A stretch of DNA of 64,000 bases from assembly GCA_000165345.1 (NCBI GenBank), contig CM000432.1, positions 192,001 through 256,000 on the forward strand, written 5' to 3'. Positions 14,724 through 19,043 of this stretch are shown one piece after another. Below the pieces are notes generated by a model. That model worked only from the letters and a program-made list of their open reading frames with translations, was not told where the DNA came from and made no database searches. How positions within the stretch are numbered: position 1 is the stretch's first letter; every line of letters begins with the position of its first letter. Both the position numbers and the translations under genes were made by a program.

Positions 14724-17700
14724 ATGGCAGAATTAATAATGGGAGTAGATTTTGATAATAAAAAAGAGTATGTTAAAGAATATAATTTAGGAAAAAATGA
14801 GGATATTGTTGAGTTAATTCGTATTTTGAGAATACAAGAAGAATCAAGAAAATCATTGGAAGAAGAAATACAGGTAATAGTATCAAATAATGAAAATTTG
14901 AAACAGGAATTAATTTCTAGTAATGAAATGGTAAATTATTGGAAAGATCAATATGAAATTTGTAATGAATCATTAAAGATAGTAAATGAAGAATTTGAAC
15001 AATTGAAAGCTTATGATGAGAATATGAATACATTTAATAAAACATTTAAGAGTATGGAATGCAAAAAATGTGGATATGAATGGAAGAAGATAAATGTTGA
15101 AAATGATTATAGAGATTTAAATTCAAAAATAACAGATAATGATTTAGAGAATTTTTTAGATATAACAAATATTCTAGTTTCTTCATTATATATGAATGAG
15201 ATGGAAGACTTAACAATAGAAGAAAATAATGATATAATTTTAAATGAAGATAATATAATAAAAGATCAGGAATTTGAGAAGCTTAAGATTGAGAATGAGG
15301 AACTTAAGATACTTTTAAAGAAGAAGGAAGGAATAATAATGGATTTACAGAATGAATTAGGTCAAATAAAGAGTAGATTAATGGTAGAAAAGAGTTTACC
15401 AAATATATTTAAAATAGTGAATAATGATTTATTGGATGATAAAACATCAGAGGATGATGATACTCCAGAATCTAGTTATTTTAAAGTTACATTAGATGAT
15501 AAAGAATTAATGAATGATAAGAATAAAAAGAATTATTTGGATCAATTGAAATCTATTAATAAGAAAAGAAAGATAGCATTTTGTTTAGATAATGATTTGG
15601 ATACTAAGGAATTAAAATTATCAGAAAGTTTGGAAGATTTGAATGGTTTAAATAATATTAATAATGAATTATTAGAACAAGTTAATGTCATGAATAAGAT
15701 TTCAGATATTGAGAATATTGAAACAAATATAGATGTTAATGAAAAGAGTGGTAAATATGAAGAGGTGAATAGTAATGAAATCGGTAAATTAAGAGTTGAA
15801 TCAGAATTAGTAGAGGGTTTGAGTTGGGAAGATGATGTTTGGGAGGAGGAGGAAGAAGAAGAAGAAGAGGAAGAAGAGGAAGAAGAAGAAGAAGGAGAAG
15901 AGGAAAGATTAAGAAAAGAGATGGAAAAAGAAAGACTCAGAAAAGAGGAGGAAGAGAGAATCAGAATAGAAGAAGAGAAGGAAAGACTCAGGATAGAAGA
16001 AGAAGAGAGAATTAGAATAGAAGAAGAGGAGAGACTTAGAAAAGAGGAGGAAGATTCGAGTGTTAGAAGAGAAAAATTGGTTACTAATATTATGAATGAG
16101 AATGATTTGAATGAATTTATTAGAGGAGAGGGATTGAAAAGTAGTGAAATGATAAATGAAGTGGAGGGATCAAAAAAGAATATAATAGGCTTAAAGTCAT
16201 TTTTGGATGATTTTGTGAGCCATATTTCAGGATCTATTAATGATGATATTAATGAAAAGGAAGAGAATAAGGATGATAATAGTTTCAAGGACATTTTTGA
16301 TTCCTATAATAATAACAATAATAATAATAATAATAATAGTAATTCAAATAACATTCCATCTTTTACAGGATTTGTCTCAAATATCAAAAGCTTCTTTAAT
16401 GATGAAAGGAGTAATCCTGTTGTTGATTGGAATCTTAAGAAAATTCAAGATAACTTAATAGATTCAAAGAATAATTCTAATAACTCAATGATTTGTGAAC
16501 AAATTAAAATGAATAATGAAAGTAATGGTATGATTAATTCAAATTGGGATAGCAACGATTGGGGATTCGATGAGGATTTTGAAGAAGAGGAAACAGAAAA
16601 AGAAGAAGGGAAAGAAGAAGCGAGAAATGAGGAGGAGGAAAGAAAAGAGGAGGAGAAGGTAGATGATAATTGGGGTGATGACTTTTTCAGTGATGAAAGT
16701 GATGGTAATAATGATAAAGGTTATATAGAAGATGAATCTGAGTTGAGAAAGAGTAATGATTTAGTTATAATAAATAGTTTAAACTTTAGCGAATTGTCAT
16801 CAGAGGAAAAAGTTCAAGATCAAACAAAAAAAGTAGAGAATTCAAAAAATGAATTTAATAATTGGGATAATATTGATGATTGGAGTGACGAATTTGGGAG
16901 TTTTGATAAGGAGGAAGAGAGAATTAGAATAGAAGAAGAGGAAGAAAGGCTTAGAAAAGAGGAGGAAGAAGAGAGGATTAGAAAAGAAGAGGAAGAGAGA
17001 ATCAGAAAAGAGGAGGAAGAGAGACTTAGAATAGAAGAAGAGGAGAGGATCAGAAAAGAGGAGGAGAGAATAAGAAAAGAGGAGGAAGAGAGACTTAGAA
17101 AAGAAGAGGAGAGAATCAGAAAAGAAGAGGAGGAGAGACTTAGAAGAGAAGAGGAGGAGAGACTCAGAAAGGAGGAGGAAGAAAGACTTAGAAAAGAAGA
17201 GGAGAGACTCAGAAAAGAGGAGGAAGAAGAGAGGATTAGAAAAGAAGAGGAAGAGAGAATCAGAAAAGAGGAGGAAGAGAGACTTAGAAAAGAAGAGGAG
17301 AGACTCAGAAAAGAGGAGGAAGAAGAGAGGATTAGAAAAGAAGAGGAAGAAAGACTTAGAAAAGAAGAGGAAGAGAGACTTAGAAAAGAGGAGGAAGAGA
17401 GACTTAGAAAAGAAGAGGAAGAGGAGAGGATTAGAAAAGAGGAAGAGGAGAGACTTAGAAGAGAAGAGGAAGAGAGACTCAGAAAAGAGGAGGAAGAGAG
17501 AATCAGAAAAGAGGAGGAAGAAAGACTTAGAAAAGAAGAGGAAGAAGAGAGGATTAGAATAGAGGAGGAAGAAAGACTTAGAAAAGAAGAGGAAGAAAGA
17601 CTTAGAATAGAAGAAGAGGAGAGGATTAGAAAAGAAGAGGAAGAAGAAAGGCTTAGAAGAGAAGAGGAAGAGGAGAGGATTAGAAAAGAAGAAGAGGAGA

Positions 17701-19043
17701 GACTTAGAAAAGAAGAGGAGGAGAGACTCAGAAAGGAGGAGGAAGAGAGAATCAGAAAAGAAGAAGAGAGGATTAGAAAAGAAGAGGAGGAGAGACTCAG
17801 AAAAGAGGAGGAAGAGAGACTTAGAATAGAAGAAGAGGAGAGGATCAGAAAAGAGGAGGAGAGAATAAGAAAAGAAGAAGAGAGGATTAGAAAAGAGGAG
17901 GAAGAAGAAAGACTTAGAAAAGAAGAGGAAGAGAGACTTAGAATAGAAGAAGAGGAGAGGATTAGAAAAGAGGAGGAAGAAGAAAGGCTTAGAAGAGAAG
18001 AGGAAGAGGAGAGGATTAGAAAAGAAGAAGAGGAGAGACTTAGAAGAGAAGAGGAGGAGAGACTCAGAAAGGAGGAGGAAGAAAGACTTAGAAAAGAAGA
18101 GGAAGAAAGACTTAGAATAGAAGAAGAGGAGAGACTTAGAAGAGAAGAGGAAGAGAGAATCAGAAAAGAAGAAGAGAGGATTAGAAAAGAAGAAAAAAAA
18201 CCTATAATAAAAGATATAATAGAAAATAATAATTTTGAAATTGAGAAAAATATTGATTCAAGTTGGGAAGATGAATGGGATTTCGATGATGATTTTAATA
18301 ATGATTTCGATAACAATAATAATAGTAATAATATAAATAATATTAATAATAACAATAACAATGCCGAAATACAAAATAATGAATCAGAAGATGAATGGGA
18401 ATATAATAATAGAGATAAATTTACTGATAATTCAATAAATGAATTAAAAGAAATTAATGATAATAGTTGGGAAGATGAATGGGATTTTGAAGAAGATTTA
18501 GATAATGACAATAATAATAATAATAATAATAATAATAATAATAACTCCACTAATAATATTAATAATGATTCAGCTTTTATTCAAAACTTTAGCTGGGATG
18601 ATGATAAATGGTCATCAAATGATGAAATTAATATTAATGATAATGATAATAATAATGATAATAATAATCATCAAATTATTTCTTCAAATTTTAATATTAA
18701 TAATGAAACAATTGATCAAAATAATCAAAAATTAAATGAACAATTTATTTCTTTATCATCACCAAATAATGCTAATTCTAATAATTCTAATGCTATTTCT
18801 AATAATATTAATATTAATAATAATAATCCTCTAAGTTTTGTTGAATGGAAAGATGAAGATGATTTCTGGAGTGAAAGTGAAATAAATAGTGATAACCTAT
18901 CTAGCAAAGATTCTTTTGAATTTAAAAATGATAATAATAATAATAATAATATTAATATTAATAATATTAATGGTAATAATGATGAAAAAAGTAATTCCAA
19001 CTCTAATTGGAATGATTTAAATTGGTCTGATGATGAATTTTAA
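14724..19043 (+). CDS. 1439-aa low-complexity coiled-coil protein with a giant EEEERLRK/EEEERIRK tandem repeat, poly-Glu and poly-Asn tracts
   Basis: An intact single ORF from an ATG. It begins with a coiled-coil N-terminus, has a poly-E run at about 15842-15906, carries roughly 50 copies of an 8-residue E4-R-[LI]-R-K unit across 16905-18195, and ends with a D/N/W-rich tail containing repeated SWEDEWDF motifs. Confidence 0.6.
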   Translation: MAELIMGVDFDNKKEYVKEYNLGKNEDIVELIRILRIQEESRKSLEEEIQVIVSNNENLKQELISSNEMVNYWKDQYEICNESLKIVNEEFEQLKAYDENMNTFNKTFKSMECKKCGYEWKKINVENDYRDLNSKITDNDLENFLDITNILVSSLYMNEMEDLTIEENNDIILNEDNIIKDQEFEKLKIENEELKILLKKKEGIIMDLQNELGQIKSRLMVEKSLPNIFKIVNNDLLDDKTSEDDDTPESSYFKVTLDDKELMNDKNKKNYLDQLKSINKKRKIAFCLDNDLDTKELKLSESLEDLNGLNNINNELLEQVNVMNKISDIENIETNIDVNEKSGKYEEVNSNEIGKLRVESELVEGLSWEDDVWEEEEEEEEEEEEEEEEEGEEERLRKEMEKERLRKEEEERIRIEEEKERLRIEEEERIRIEEEERLRKEEEDSSVRREKLVTNIMNENDLNEFIRGEGLKSSEMINEVEGSKKNIIGLKSFLDDFVSHISGSINDDINEKEENKDDNSFKDIFDSYNNNNNNNNNNSNSNNIPSFTGFVSNIKSFFNDERSNPVVDWNLKKIQDNLIDSKNNSNNSMICEQIKMNNESNGMINSNWDSNDWGFDEDFEEEETEKEEGKEEARNEEEERKEEEKVDDNWGDDFFSDESDGNNDKGYIEDESELRKSNDLVIINSLNFSELSSEEKVQDQTKKVENSKNEFNNWDNIDDWSDEFGSFDKEEERIRIEEEEERLRKEEEEERIRKEEEERIRKEEEERLRIEEEERIRKEEERIRKEEEERLRKEEERIRKEEEERLRREEEERLRKEEEERLRKEEERLRKEEEEERIRKEEEERIRKEEEERLRKEEERLRKEEEEERIRKEEEERLRKEEEERLRKEEEERLRKEEEEERIRKEEEERLRREEEERLRKEEEERIRKEEEERLRKEEEEERIRIEEEERLRKEEEERLRIEEEERIRKEEEEERLRREEEEERIRKEEEERLRKEEEERLRKEEEERIRKEEERIRKEEEERLRKEEEERLRIEEEERIRKEEERIRKEEERIRKEEEEERLRKEEEERLRIEEEERIRKEEEEERLRREEEEERIRKEEEERLRREEEERLRKEEEERLRKEEEERLRIEEEERLRREEEERIRKEEERIRKEEKKPIIKDIIENNNFEIEKNIDSSWEDEWDFDDDFNNDFDNNNNSNNINNINNNNNNAEIQNNESEDEWEYNNRDKFTDNSINELKEINDNSWEDEWDFEEDLDNDNNNNNNNNNNNNSTNNINNDSAFIQNFSWDDDKWSSNDEININDNDNNNDNNNHQIISSNFNINNETIDQNNQKLNEQFISLSSPNNANSNNSNAISNNININNNNPLSFVEWKDEDDFWSESEINSDNLSSKDSFEFKNDNNNNNNININNINGNNDEKSNSNSNWNDLNWSDDEF
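15842..15906 (+). repeat. (GAA/GAG)n tract encoding poly-Glu
   Basis: ggaggaggaggaagaagaagaagaagaggaagaagaggaagaagaagaagaagga. It lies inside the 14724..19043 CDS. Confidence 0.9.
16905..18195 (+). repeat. coding tandem repeat, ~24-nt period (gaagaggaagagagacttagaaaa variants), polypurine-biased
   Basis: The same unit is visibly repeated over ~1.3 kb with 21/24/27-nt variants and Leu/Ile (ctt/att) alternation. It also creates the spurious 576-aa antisense poly-Ser/Leu ORF 16820..18550. Confidence 0.9.

Follow-up and report, generated by a model that had tools for sequence, protein, structure and literature searches.

The 24-nt repeat array of the Cryptosporidium parvum gene cgd4_770 is probably translated into a lineage-specific single alpha-helix (SAH) of the ER/K type, in a putative cytosolic scaffold protein present only in Cryptosporidium. 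The array DNA, rich in GAR, behaves as a minisatellite that changes by whole units, gained or lost, and counts 46 to 58 of them in the C. parvum/C. hominis clade; selection maintains its frame and charge pattern but not its exact sequence, and SAH character is absent in more distant Cryptosporidium species. The features are the following, numbered along the whole 64-kb stretch of DNA analysed here (the window).

14724-19043, + strand: complete, intronless ORF of cgd4_770, 1439 aa (ORF list)
14796-15392, + strand: N-terminal conserved region, aa 25-223, with two long helices (25-110 and 170-223), from a six-ortholog alignment
15822-15842, 16542-16580 and 16668-16688, + strand: further copies of the acidic double-Trp motif
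15843-16052, + strand: poly-Glu run E17 (aa 374-390), then a small first ER/K array (aa 374-443 overall)
16200-16238, + strand: hydrophobic motif FLDDFVSHISGSI, conserved genus-wide
16362-16403, + strand: hydrophobic motif FTGFVSNIKSFFND, conserved genus-wide
16820-18550, - strand: antisense ORF, 576 aa, rich in Ser, Leu and Phe, regarded as a by-product and not as a gene
16860-16895, + strand: acidic double-Trp motif NWDNIDDWSDEF, immediately before the main array
16911-18188, + strand: main array, predicted ER/K-type SAH, 53 units E3-5-R-[LI]-R-[KRI], 426 aa, 89% purine
17510-17560, + strand: segment of 51 nt, comprising one unit of 8 aa and one of 9 aa, cleanly deleted in GCA_048859185.1 (20.7-kb pairwise alignment)
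18261-19040, + strand: C-terminal Asn-rich region with six acidic Trp motifs

The cgd4_770 gene and its repeat

The ORF is assigned to the chromosome-4 gene cgd4_770 because an exact match to its protein lies on two C. parvum chromosome sequences, CP044419 and CP029783, and the published RT-PCR primers for this gene map to 18273-18374, with those for cgd4_760 and cgd4_780 falling in the flanking genes. Transcripts have been detected by RT-PCR from 6 h post infection. The product is extremely acidic, with a calculated net charge of about -219; hydropathy analysis revealed neither a signal peptide nor a transmembrane segment. Outside the array, poly-Asn and poly-Glu are abundant. No Pfam match was obtained at E <= 0.1, nor for three orthologs at E <= 0.01, and the C. 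felis ortholog carries the NCBI name "Low complexity protein with large Glu repeat". When 1.84 billion representatives were searched with a profile, relatives were confined to Cryptosporidium, where the gene order ASF1 - cgd4_770 ortholog - TopoII is kept in at least seven species.

The protein is listed as CEP120 in a table of Suvorova et al. 2015 (PMC4348508), from a BLAST match of e-13; according to this entry, it would be the Cryptosporidium CEP120 ortholog and the repeat would belong to the CEP120 coiled-coil region. We consider this highly improbable, since the Pfam searches revealed no C2 or Cep120 domain at the above thresholds, the N-terminal 729 aa have no CEP120 chain match in the PDB at E <= 1, the N-terminus is predicted by AlphaFold to be all-helical instead of a C2 beta-sandwich, and the profile search found relatives in Cryptosporidium only. 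The BLAST match is most simply due to the Glu/Arg/Lys-rich composition.

Tandem Repeats Finder (TRF) returned a single call for the main array (16911-18193, period 24, 53.1 copies, score 1352), and apart from this one and the small first array, no tandem repeat in the window reaches a score of 150. Segmentation of the translation places the main array at aa 730-1155, as 53 contiguous units of 8 aa (33 units, 24 nt), 9 aa (11 units, 27 nt) or 7 aa (9 units, 21 nt); all 20 units that are not 24 nt long deviate by exactly 3 nt, and neither stop codons nor frameshifts occur. The original prediction, made from the sequence alone, described about 1.3 kb of E4-R-[LI]-R-K repeat kept in frame within a 1439-aa protein, with 21- and 27-nt variants and an intact frame, and TRF, ORF list and segmentation agree with it; its count of about 50 copies becomes 53. 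The codon tally likewise bears out the Leu/Ile swaps through ctt/att, since Leu is encoded by CTT or CTC only and Ile by ATT, ATC or ATA, so that the alternation is a single C/A change. The repeated SWEDEWDF motif is present in two copies, both downstream of the array (aa 1180 and aa 1248), while poly-Glu, which had been described as flanking the array, does exist but lies about 340 aa upstream of it.

Differences between units are confined to third codon positions, to the L/I site and to the K/I/R site. Seven of the eight third codon positions vary in C. parvum, against 2 of 16 first and second positions (Fisher p = 7e-4); no unit carries a substitution outside the L/I and K/R/I sites, despite a synonymous diversity of 0.2-0.5 at each third position.

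Because 89% of the sense strand is purine, two antisense frames run through the array without a stop. The 576-aa antisense ORF is an artefact of this purine richness, as originally proposed, and not a gene; in agreement, the ORF on the + strand is syntenic, conserved in the whole genus and under purifying selection downstream of the array.

Predicted helical character of the array

Glu accounts for 50% of the main array, Arg for 26%, Lys for 9%, and Leu and Ile together for 14%. Glu, Arg and Lys thus make up 86% of its 426 residues, where about 80% of charged or polar positions is expected of a SAH. Opposite charges occupy 284 of the 422 i/i+4 pairs (67%), compared with 152 +/- 8 (36%; maximum 180) in 1000 shuffles, a z-score of about 16, and only 19 pairs have the same charge, which gives the dense opposite-charge network typical of SAHs. 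Leu and Ile are spaced by 7, 8 or 9 residues and no heptad signal is present, the hydrophobic power at 3.5 residues being 0.0 vs 2.1 in the N-terminal helix; the lack of a heptad hydrophobic seam is what separates SAHs from coiled coils. Among the PDB sequence matches of the array, the sole eukaryotic one is the myosin-VI region 892-1021, a weak match (E = 5e-4) to the myosin-VI SAH region. By sequence, the array agrees with every computed criterion of ER/K-type SAHs, in line with the original prediction. The canonical (E4(K/R)4)n motif is not reproduced, the basic half R-[LI]-R-[KRI] containing 2-3 basic and 1-2 aliphatic residues.

Charge and the AlphaFold model both count against the SAH reading. 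The net charge of the array is -62 and its R:K ratio close to 3:1, and designed repeats with 2-3 Arg among the three basic residues of the heptad have been reported to aggregate (Simm & Kollmar 2018). The AlphaFold model is broken in the middle of the array. From the single sequence, helices were predicted at aa 729-889 (161 residues) and 968-1156 (189 residues) with pLDDT 85-93, separated by 78 residues (aa 890-967) with pLDDT of about 55, where the sequence is no different; the pTM is 0.27. The model would fit one rod and a folded-back pair alike and cannot distinguish between them.

Indeed, two array helices of nearly equal length with a low-confidence loop between them could also indicate a helical bundle, either intermolecular or folded back, as a charged coiled coil or an antiparallel hairpin whose register is held by the N-terminal coiled coil. 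The heptad periodicity of helix 25-110 could allow the protein to dimerise, and each unit supplies one Leu or Ile, with L-x-I in seven units. Nevertheless, a bundle seems quite unlikely: hydrophobic residues are just 14%, their 7/8/9 spacing leaves no continuous stripe and the 3.5-residue power is zero, two array chains would repel each other because of the net charge of -62, and the AlphaFold break has no sequence basis in a model of such low pTM.

The preferred reading, a monomeric SAH, places the array beside the domains of the myosin VI medial tail and of myosin X, with which it shares the dominance of Glu, Arg and Lys, the density of i/i+4 salt bridges, the absence of a hydrophobic seam and the location between functional modules. 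It differs from them as a near-perfect tandem octad in 53 copies over 426 aa, with Leu or Ile at one of the four "basic" positions, an Arg excess and a strongly negative net charge. To our knowledge, characterised SAHs are several times shorter; a Kelch-motif protein of Trichomonas vaginalis contains an ER/K helix of roughly 30 nm, which has been used as an engineered spacer. SAH domains are found in 0.5-3.5% of eukaryotic proteins, with the highest frequency in P. falciparum among the surveyed proteomes. Simm & Kollmar report that natural SAHs contain E4(K/R)4 octads only extremely rarely and never as repeats.

The identical octad EEEERLRK is also found in tandem in unrelated metagenome and protist proteins (P0008, P0009, P0011, named Roadblock/LC7/MglB family, P0012 and P0039 from Blastocystis), with the same density of i/i+4 pairs as in cgd4_770 (0.62-0.80). 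These arrays are shorter, about 49-120 aa or roughly 6 to 15 units, and have an N-terminal segment on one side and a C-terminal domain on the other; since the flanking domains are unrelated, the likeness is convergent and not due to homology. The term trichohyalin-like, also applied to the array by the original prediction, holds as a loose analogy, given the long charged Glu/Arg-rich repeats and predicted extended single helix of trichohyalin and related proteins. Membership in that class, which is defined by an S100/EF-hand head and Gln/Glu/Arg repeats, was rejected: Gln is absent from the array, neither an S100/EF-hand head nor a Pfam match (E <= 0.1) was seen in the protein, and it belongs to a protist, in a presumably cytosolic, non-keratin context.

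Copy number and evolution of the array

All four IOWA assemblies contain 53 units, identical in DNA and protein, while the C. parvum-like assembly GCA_048859185.1 has 51 and C. hominis-clade assemblies have 46, 55, 58 and 58, some of the assemblies compared being short-read. Every allele is in frame and reads to a common C-terminus. Array length ranges from 370 to 466 aa across the parvum/hominis clade, a spread in copy number of about 25%, so the exact length is not fixed. The predicted polymorphism is therefore found, and the 24-nt array behaves as a coding minisatellite or VNTR (tandem units of 10-100 bp that vary in number from isolate to isolate).

Collapse or expansion during assembly could in principle have produced the reference array length. 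Illumina assemblies do break at cgd4_770: the C. canis and C. ubiquitum contigs end within the array and that of C. felis before array 1, the C. tyzzeri array holds a run of N, and a C. parvum short-read contig stops inside the poly-Glu run, at 15881. Against this, the four identical IOWA assemblies include IOWA-ATCC (long-read) and IOWA-BGF (ONT+MiSeq, telomere-to-telomere), two of the four being independent long-read or hybrid projects according to the cited papers; Baptista et al., testing read depth, reported chromosome 4 to be free of compression, and the longest exact duplicate inside the array is just 79 nt. An artefact is excluded for the IOWA allele, whose frame is intact, and hardly credible as an explanation of the reference length.

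The proposal that the locus could serve for typing is upheld as regards polymorphism; since short-read assemblies regularly break there, typing by the array is workable only with long reads or amplicon sizing. The literature search returned a single paper naming cgd4_770, and no use of the array as a typing marker was found. Like Cryptosporidium typing loci such as the gp60 serine repeat, the array is a tandem repeat in coding sequence that varies in copy number from one isolate or species to another. MLVA loci of Cryptosporidium include cgd4_2350_796. At about 1.1-1.4 kb of degenerate 24-nt units, the cgd4_770 array is far longer than the fragment-sizing loci and is beyond short-read assembly.

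Outside the parvum/hominis clade the repeat itself changes. In C. canis the units are E5(K)ERRRI, and in C. ryanae and the species of GCA_037039495 the equivalent interval is filled by different 26-aa acidic repeats, which contain Ser, Gly, Asn and Pro and have an i/i+4 opposite-charge density of 0.14-0.20; thus, a rigid helix is not required genus-wide. C. hominis units accept E to K/V/L/D and L to F replacements. The C. ryanae and GCA_037039495 repeats, the C. hominis substitutions and the copy-number variation of about 25% count against the SAH reading.

In a neutral reading, the array would be a low-complexity expansion, produced by slippage and tolerated in a disordered, acidic part of the protein, a flexible polyampholyte filler with neither a defined helix nor a length-dependent role. 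In its favour, unit sequence is unconserved among species, copy number drifts between 46 and 58, array DNA is about 85% identical between C. parvum and C. hominis vs 96.5% in the flanks, the array holds half of the SNPs that separate two C. parvum assemblies, and the remainder of the protein is itself rich in poly-Asn and poly-Glu. We regard this reading as rather unlikely, because the charge register is far from random, C. parvum units are invariant outside the L/I and K/R/I sites despite their synonymous diversity, the octad recurs independently in unrelated proteins, and array length is held at 370-466 aa within the clade. That in-frame translation is required follows from the 3-nt size steps, from the read-through of all 46-58-unit alleles and from a dN/dS of 0.27 downstream of the array.

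Conserved modules and proposed role of the protein

Both N-terminal helices are modelled by AlphaFold with pLDDT of about 90. Helix 25-110 is likely a coiled-coil or dimerisation module, as indicated by its heptad (3.5-residue) hydrophobic periodicity. Cys80, Cys113 and Cys116 are invariant in six Cryptosporidium orthologs, with a CxxC at 15060-15083. The small first array (about 5-6 degenerate units, aa 394-440) reaches about 150 aa in C. canis and is absent in C. ubiquitum. The motifs FLDDFVSHISGSI and FTGFVSNIKSFFND recur with hardly a change in C. canis, C. ubiquitum and C. ryanae, and also in the GCA_037039495 ortholog.

In every species the array is anchored on its left by the acidic double-Trp motif, which reads GWDSIDDWSEEE in C. 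canis and DWDSMGDWSDDFE in C. ubiquitum. Beyond the array, the C-terminal motifs are SWEDEWDF (twice), EDEWEY, SWDDDKW, EWKDEDDFW and the terminal NWNDLNWSDDEF, the last being kept as IWEDIDWNSDENDS in C. ryanae and VWEDIEWNSDDNDF in GCA_037039495. The C-terminal region is under purifying selection: the above dN/dS is that between C. parvum and C. hominis, and all Trp motifs are intact. Of the 21 Trp residues of the protein, 19 are in acidic motifs, which are conserved genus-wide. The conserved parts of the protein are, on sequence grounds, the putative N-terminal coiled coil and about ten acidic double-Trp motifs.

The C-terminal motifs are likely partner-binding sites. One lead is their resemblance to the delta-COP-binding di-Trp motifs of the Dsl1 "lasso" and ArfGAP1/Gcs1 (ELM LIG_deltaCOP1_diTrp_1), in which Trp with acidic flanks in a disordered segment binds the delta-COP mu-homology domain. 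With about ten acidic Trp or double-Trp motifs in disordered regions, cgd4_770 agrees with the sequence pattern, a resemblance of pattern only; the spacing is W-x(3-5)-W, and cgd4_770 and Dsl1 are unrelated. Alternative readers of such W-acidic motifs may be AP-2 appendages, kinesin light chain and Atg8.

In the proposed SAH, each octad would set four Glu one helical turn before R-x-R-K, so that salt bridges from i to i+4 would form an unbroken ladder running both ways along the helix. The lone Leu or Ile would shift about 80 degrees round the helix with each unit, so that no hydrophobic seam could form and a coiled coil would not be possible. If fully helical, the array would fold as a semi-rigid rod or spring, monomeric and about 64 nm long (426 aa x 0.15 nm), separating the N-terminal coiled-coil module and the mid-protein motifs from the C-terminal acidic double-Trp cluster. 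A generic linker role would fit the octad arrays, since those of unrelated proteins sit between domains. Thus, the array is most likely a semi-rigid spacer of a scaffold or tether protein; it would be a new and unusually long member of a kind of protein element that is already known, and not a new type of element.

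The tandem array and the gene that carries it

The repeat lies within an open reading frame on the forward strand of the window, and a second, antisense frame covers much of the same DNA.

Features of the repeat region
14724-19043, + strand: ORF of 1439 aa (ORF list)
16911-18193: main tandem array, period 24, 53.1 copies, score 1352 (Tandem Repeats Finder)
16820-18550, - strand: antisense Ser/Leu/Phe ORF of 576 aa (ORF list)

When the translation is cut after each R-[LI]-R-[KRI], the main array resolves into 53 adjoining units (aa 730-1155, nt 16911-18188), confirming the original prediction of about 50 in-frame copies of a 24-nt unit within a 1439-aa protein. 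Units of 8 residues are the most frequent (n=33), followed by those of 9 (n=11) and 7 residues (n=9); each of the 20 length variants among the 53 has exactly one GAR codon more or fewer than the 24-nt form. Glu (50%), Arg (26%), Lys (9%) and Leu plus Ile (14%) make up the array. Its Leu codons are only CTT or CTC, those elsewhere in the gene being mostly TTA or TTG; therefore, the Leu/Ile alternation corresponds to a single C/A change, as had been proposed. The coding strand of the array is 89% purine and, because of this bias, two antisense frames lack stop codons, which accounts for the 576-aa antisense ORF; this was rejected as a gene, in line with its earlier description as an artefact. 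Among tandem repeats scoring >=150, the 64-kb window contains only two arrays, both in this gene.

Other low-complexity tracts are also present. A run of 17 Glu followed by a second, small ER/K array (the first array) is found at 15843-16052, and poly-Asn (AAT/AAC) microsatellites are numerous at 18310-18566, 18923-18980 and 20722-20766, in this gene and in the neighbouring topoisomerase II gene cgd4_780, which encodes 1797 aa with long low-complexity inserts. In the poly-Asn tract at 18509, one of two C. parvum assemblies has one AAT more than the other, and poly-Asn tract lengths are unequal between C. parvum and C. hominis.

The gene was identified through published RT-PCR primers: those for cgd4_770 match window positions 18273-18374 with <=2 edits and those for cgd4_760 and cgd4_780 fall in the flanking ASF1 and topoisomerase II genes; therefore, the ORF is cgd4_770. 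According to the published RT-PCR supplement, its transcripts are absent at 2 h and detected from 6 h of infection, by an assay that in our judgement was probably not strand-specific. Megabase chromosome records in two assemblies encode the exact protein, GCA_031892065.1 and GCA_015245375.1, the latter being the long-read assembly of C. parvum IOWA-ATCC (Baptista et al.); an exact look-up in a clustered protein collection gave no match, although contigs encode the protein. The C. felis ortholog is named 'Low complexity protein with large Glu repeat' at NCBI.

For strain IOWA at least, the possibility that the array length is a product of assembly collapse or expansion was rejected. The window, GCA_031892065.1 and GCA_015245375.1 share identical gene DNA, and GCA_035232765.1, the telomere-to-telomere assembly of IOWA-BGF from ONT+MiSeq data, has the same main array. 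The longest exact duplicate within the main array measures 79 nt, and a read-depth screen of IOWA-ATCC for collapsed repeats listed none on chromosome 4 (Baptista et al.). Short-read data behave differently at this locus: contigs of C. canis and C. ubiquitum stop inside the main array, that of C. felis just upstream of the first array and a Logan contig of C. parvum in the poly-Glu run (window 15881), while in C. tyzzeri the main array contains a run of N. Three short-read contigs, L011, L012 and the C. canis contig L003, are of nearly equal size (49468, 48225 and 48792 nt) despite deriving from different samples and even species, and have one end in common, at or just upstream of cgd4_770; therefore, the gene is a systematic Illumina break point on Cryptosporidium chromosome 4. 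Contigs of 20-50 kb with the neighbouring ASF1 gene are listed in 39 index blocks.

Copy-number variation and selection

Further assemblies were retrieved by exact match to the neighbouring ASF1 and SERF-like proteins, and units were counted between the anchors DDWSDEF and KKPIIK.

Units in the main array and identity of the flanks to the window
Four C. parvum IOWA assemblies, including the window: 99.98-99.99%, 53 units
GCA_048859185.1: 99.86%, 51 units
GCA_045269125.1: 95.9%, 46 units
GCA_001593465.1: 96.3%, 55 units
C. hominis 30976 (GCA_001483515.1): 96.6%, 58 units
GCA_002223825.1: 96.6%, 58 units

The predicted repeat-number polymorphism is thus borne out, with a range of 46-58 units across the compared assemblies, some of which are Illumina-only. 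All alleles are in frame with an identical C-terminus. The 51-unit allele arises from a clean two-unit, 51-nt deletion at window 17510, and the 55- and 58-unit alleles of the C. hominis clade differ solely by a three-unit, 72-nt indel. Between C. parvum and C. hominis, identity is about 85% with many gaps in the array DNA and about 96.5% in the flanks. Five of the 10 SNPs that separate the window from GCA_048859185.1 over 20.7 kb fall within the 1.28-kb array (window 17379-17693). One of these, the adjacent double change CTT to ATC, turns a Leu unit into an already existing Ile unit type; it has the look of a polishing error or of gene conversion between units rather than of independent point mutations. 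The locus is a variable coding minisatellite, for which typing could use long reads or amplicons.

Variation among C. parvum units is concentrated at synonymous sites: seven of the eight third codon positions vary (pairwise diversity 0.17-0.49), compared with only 2 of the 16 first and second positions (L/I and K/I/R; Fisher p = 7e-4, for columns that are not fully independent since the units have common ancestry). In C. hominis units, E to K/V/L/D and L to F variants are seen, so that constraint acts on the pattern and not on the exact sequence. Downstream of the array, dN/dS between C. parvum and C. hominis is 0.27 and every Trp motif is intact; this purifying selection implies that the array must be read through in frame.

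Evidence for a probable single alpha-helix

The array shows the hallmarks of an ER/K-type single alpha-helix (SAH), and several lines of evidence support the SAH reading of the original prediction. Among 422 i/i+4 pairs, 284 are oppositely charged (143 Glu-to-basic and 141 basic-to-Glu) and only 19 have the same charge; shuffles of the array residues give 152 +/- 8 opposite-charge pairs. Hydrophobic residues make up 14% and are spaced by 7, 8 or 9, with zero power at the 3.5-residue coiled-coil period; a clear heptad signal is found in the N-terminal helix of the protein (aa 25-110). With a turn of 100 degrees per residue, Leu/Ile would shift by 80 degrees from one 8-residue unit to the next, so that no seam should be possible. 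AlphaFold, run on aa 700-1199, predicted helices at 729-889 and 968-1156 (pLDDT 85-93) separated by a low-confidence break, which is taken as a compaction artefact, since the sequence does not change there; both models of parts of the protein show long helices, with pTM <0.3. The array matched two PDB sequences, a Legionella effector and residues 892-1021 of myosin VI (E = 5e-4), the latter being the myosin VI SAH. The alternative reading as a trichohyalin-like protein was rejected: the array contains no Gln, and the protein has no S100/EF-hand head and matches no Pfam family.

If fully helical, the 426 residues would span about 64 nm. Since the persistence length of ER/K helices is about 15 nm, the array would behave as a semi-flexible tether rather than as a stiff rod. 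Unrelated proteins, among them a Blastocystis protein and one of the Roadblock/LC7 family, also contain EEEERLRK arrays; there the identical octad extends for 49-120 aa (about 6 to 15 units) and links domains. According to Simm & Kollmar, natural SAHs contain E4(K/R)4 octads extremely rarely and never as repeats; therefore, the array is an unusual instance of a type that is itself known. Its novelty lies in being unusually long and regular for this kind, in a gene already annotated with a large Glu repeat.

A genus-specific protein around a variable, probable spacer

A profile search with the N-terminal part against 1.84 billion representatives retrieved five real relatives; all four with assignable assemblies are Cryptosporidium species and the fifth (GCA_037039495) has the same ASF1 - gene - TopoII synteny. 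No Pfam family was found in the full protein, its N- or C-terminal parts or three orthologs, and cgd4_770 has no signal peptide or TM segment. A PDB sequence search with aa 1-729 gave a single, insignificant match, the C-terminal 284 aa, used as a protein query, gave none from a candidate list that was saturated, probably with poly-Asn words, and no contig matched in two metagenome scans with unique flank sequences.

The protein, with a net charge of about -219, has a conserved N-terminal part consisting of a pair of long helices and three invariant Cys; two hydrophobic motifs, FLDDFVSHISGSI and FTGFVSNIKSFFND, are also conserved. About 10 acidic Trp or double-Trp motifs of the form W-x(3-5)-W (window 15822-19040, aa 367-1439; e.g. 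SWEDEWDF and NWNDLNWSDDEF-COOH) hold 19 of its 21 Trp; they border both arrays and occupy the extreme C-terminus, and their number and order are kept from C. parvum to C. ryanae. By their sequence they are similar to delta-COP-binding Trp motifs (ELM LIG_deltaCOP1_diTrp_1; Dsl1, ArfGAP1), which offers a lead to a possible function. Some also fit an Atg8-type WxxI/L core (NWDNI, NWNDL, IWEDI).

Two full-length orthologs have no ER/K array.

Orthologs without the ER/K array
L006 (C. ryanae contig), 6001-10620: ortholog of 1539 aa
L007 (contig of GCA_037039495.1), 6001-10512: ortholog of 1503 aa

In its place, about 8 copies of unrelated 26-aa acidic repeats are found, KIESDFEKEEEENKKDSEYKEVNSEL in C. 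ryanae and SESELESDSKGIKDDNRNDKTNKETK in GCA_037039495.1, which are unlike each other and have an i/i+4 opposite-charge density of 0.14-0.20; the total protein is still about 1500 aa. C. canis array units are E5(K)ERRRI, and its first array is expanded to about 150 aa of EEEEKERRRI units (L003 10001-11954); the first array is absent from C. ubiquitum. Given these differing repeats, the interval is best regarded as a repeat-prone spacer, whose SAH character is limited to the parvum/hominis/ubiquitum/canis lineage.

In the centrosome protein table of Suvorova et al. 2015, cgd4_770 is the Cryptosporidium match of CEP120 (e-13). This identity was rejected: no C2/Cep120 domain and no PDB match to CEP120 were found, the N-terminus is predicted to be all-helical and the profile search gave no relatives outside the genus. 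The BLAST match is best explained by composition, and the doubtful assignment drops off the centrosome parts list.

Taken together, the array is a coding minisatellite, both polymorphic and translated, that encodes a very long predicted ER/K-type single helix, most likely a spacer in a genus-specific scaffold protein. A far more speculative reading, which we consider improbable, is that a 64-70 nm helix, among the longest natural SAHs, would act as a molecular ruler or tether in a trafficking scaffold specific to Cryptosporidium, in which the coiled coil would anchor or dimerise, the approximately 10 Trp motifs would capture a coat, for instance COPI via delta-COP, and copy number would set the capture distance; if so, the natural 46-58-unit alleles would differ functionally. 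Current concepts are left unchanged by these findings; a natural, very long and near-perfectly periodic ER/K helix is a test case for maximum single alpha-helix length, and for whether an octad with one aliphatic residue still acts as an SAH. For Cryptosporidium, a 'low complexity' gene is recast as a set of testable modules, in which a coiled coil is combined with a spacer and with Trp-acidic motifs in multiple copies.
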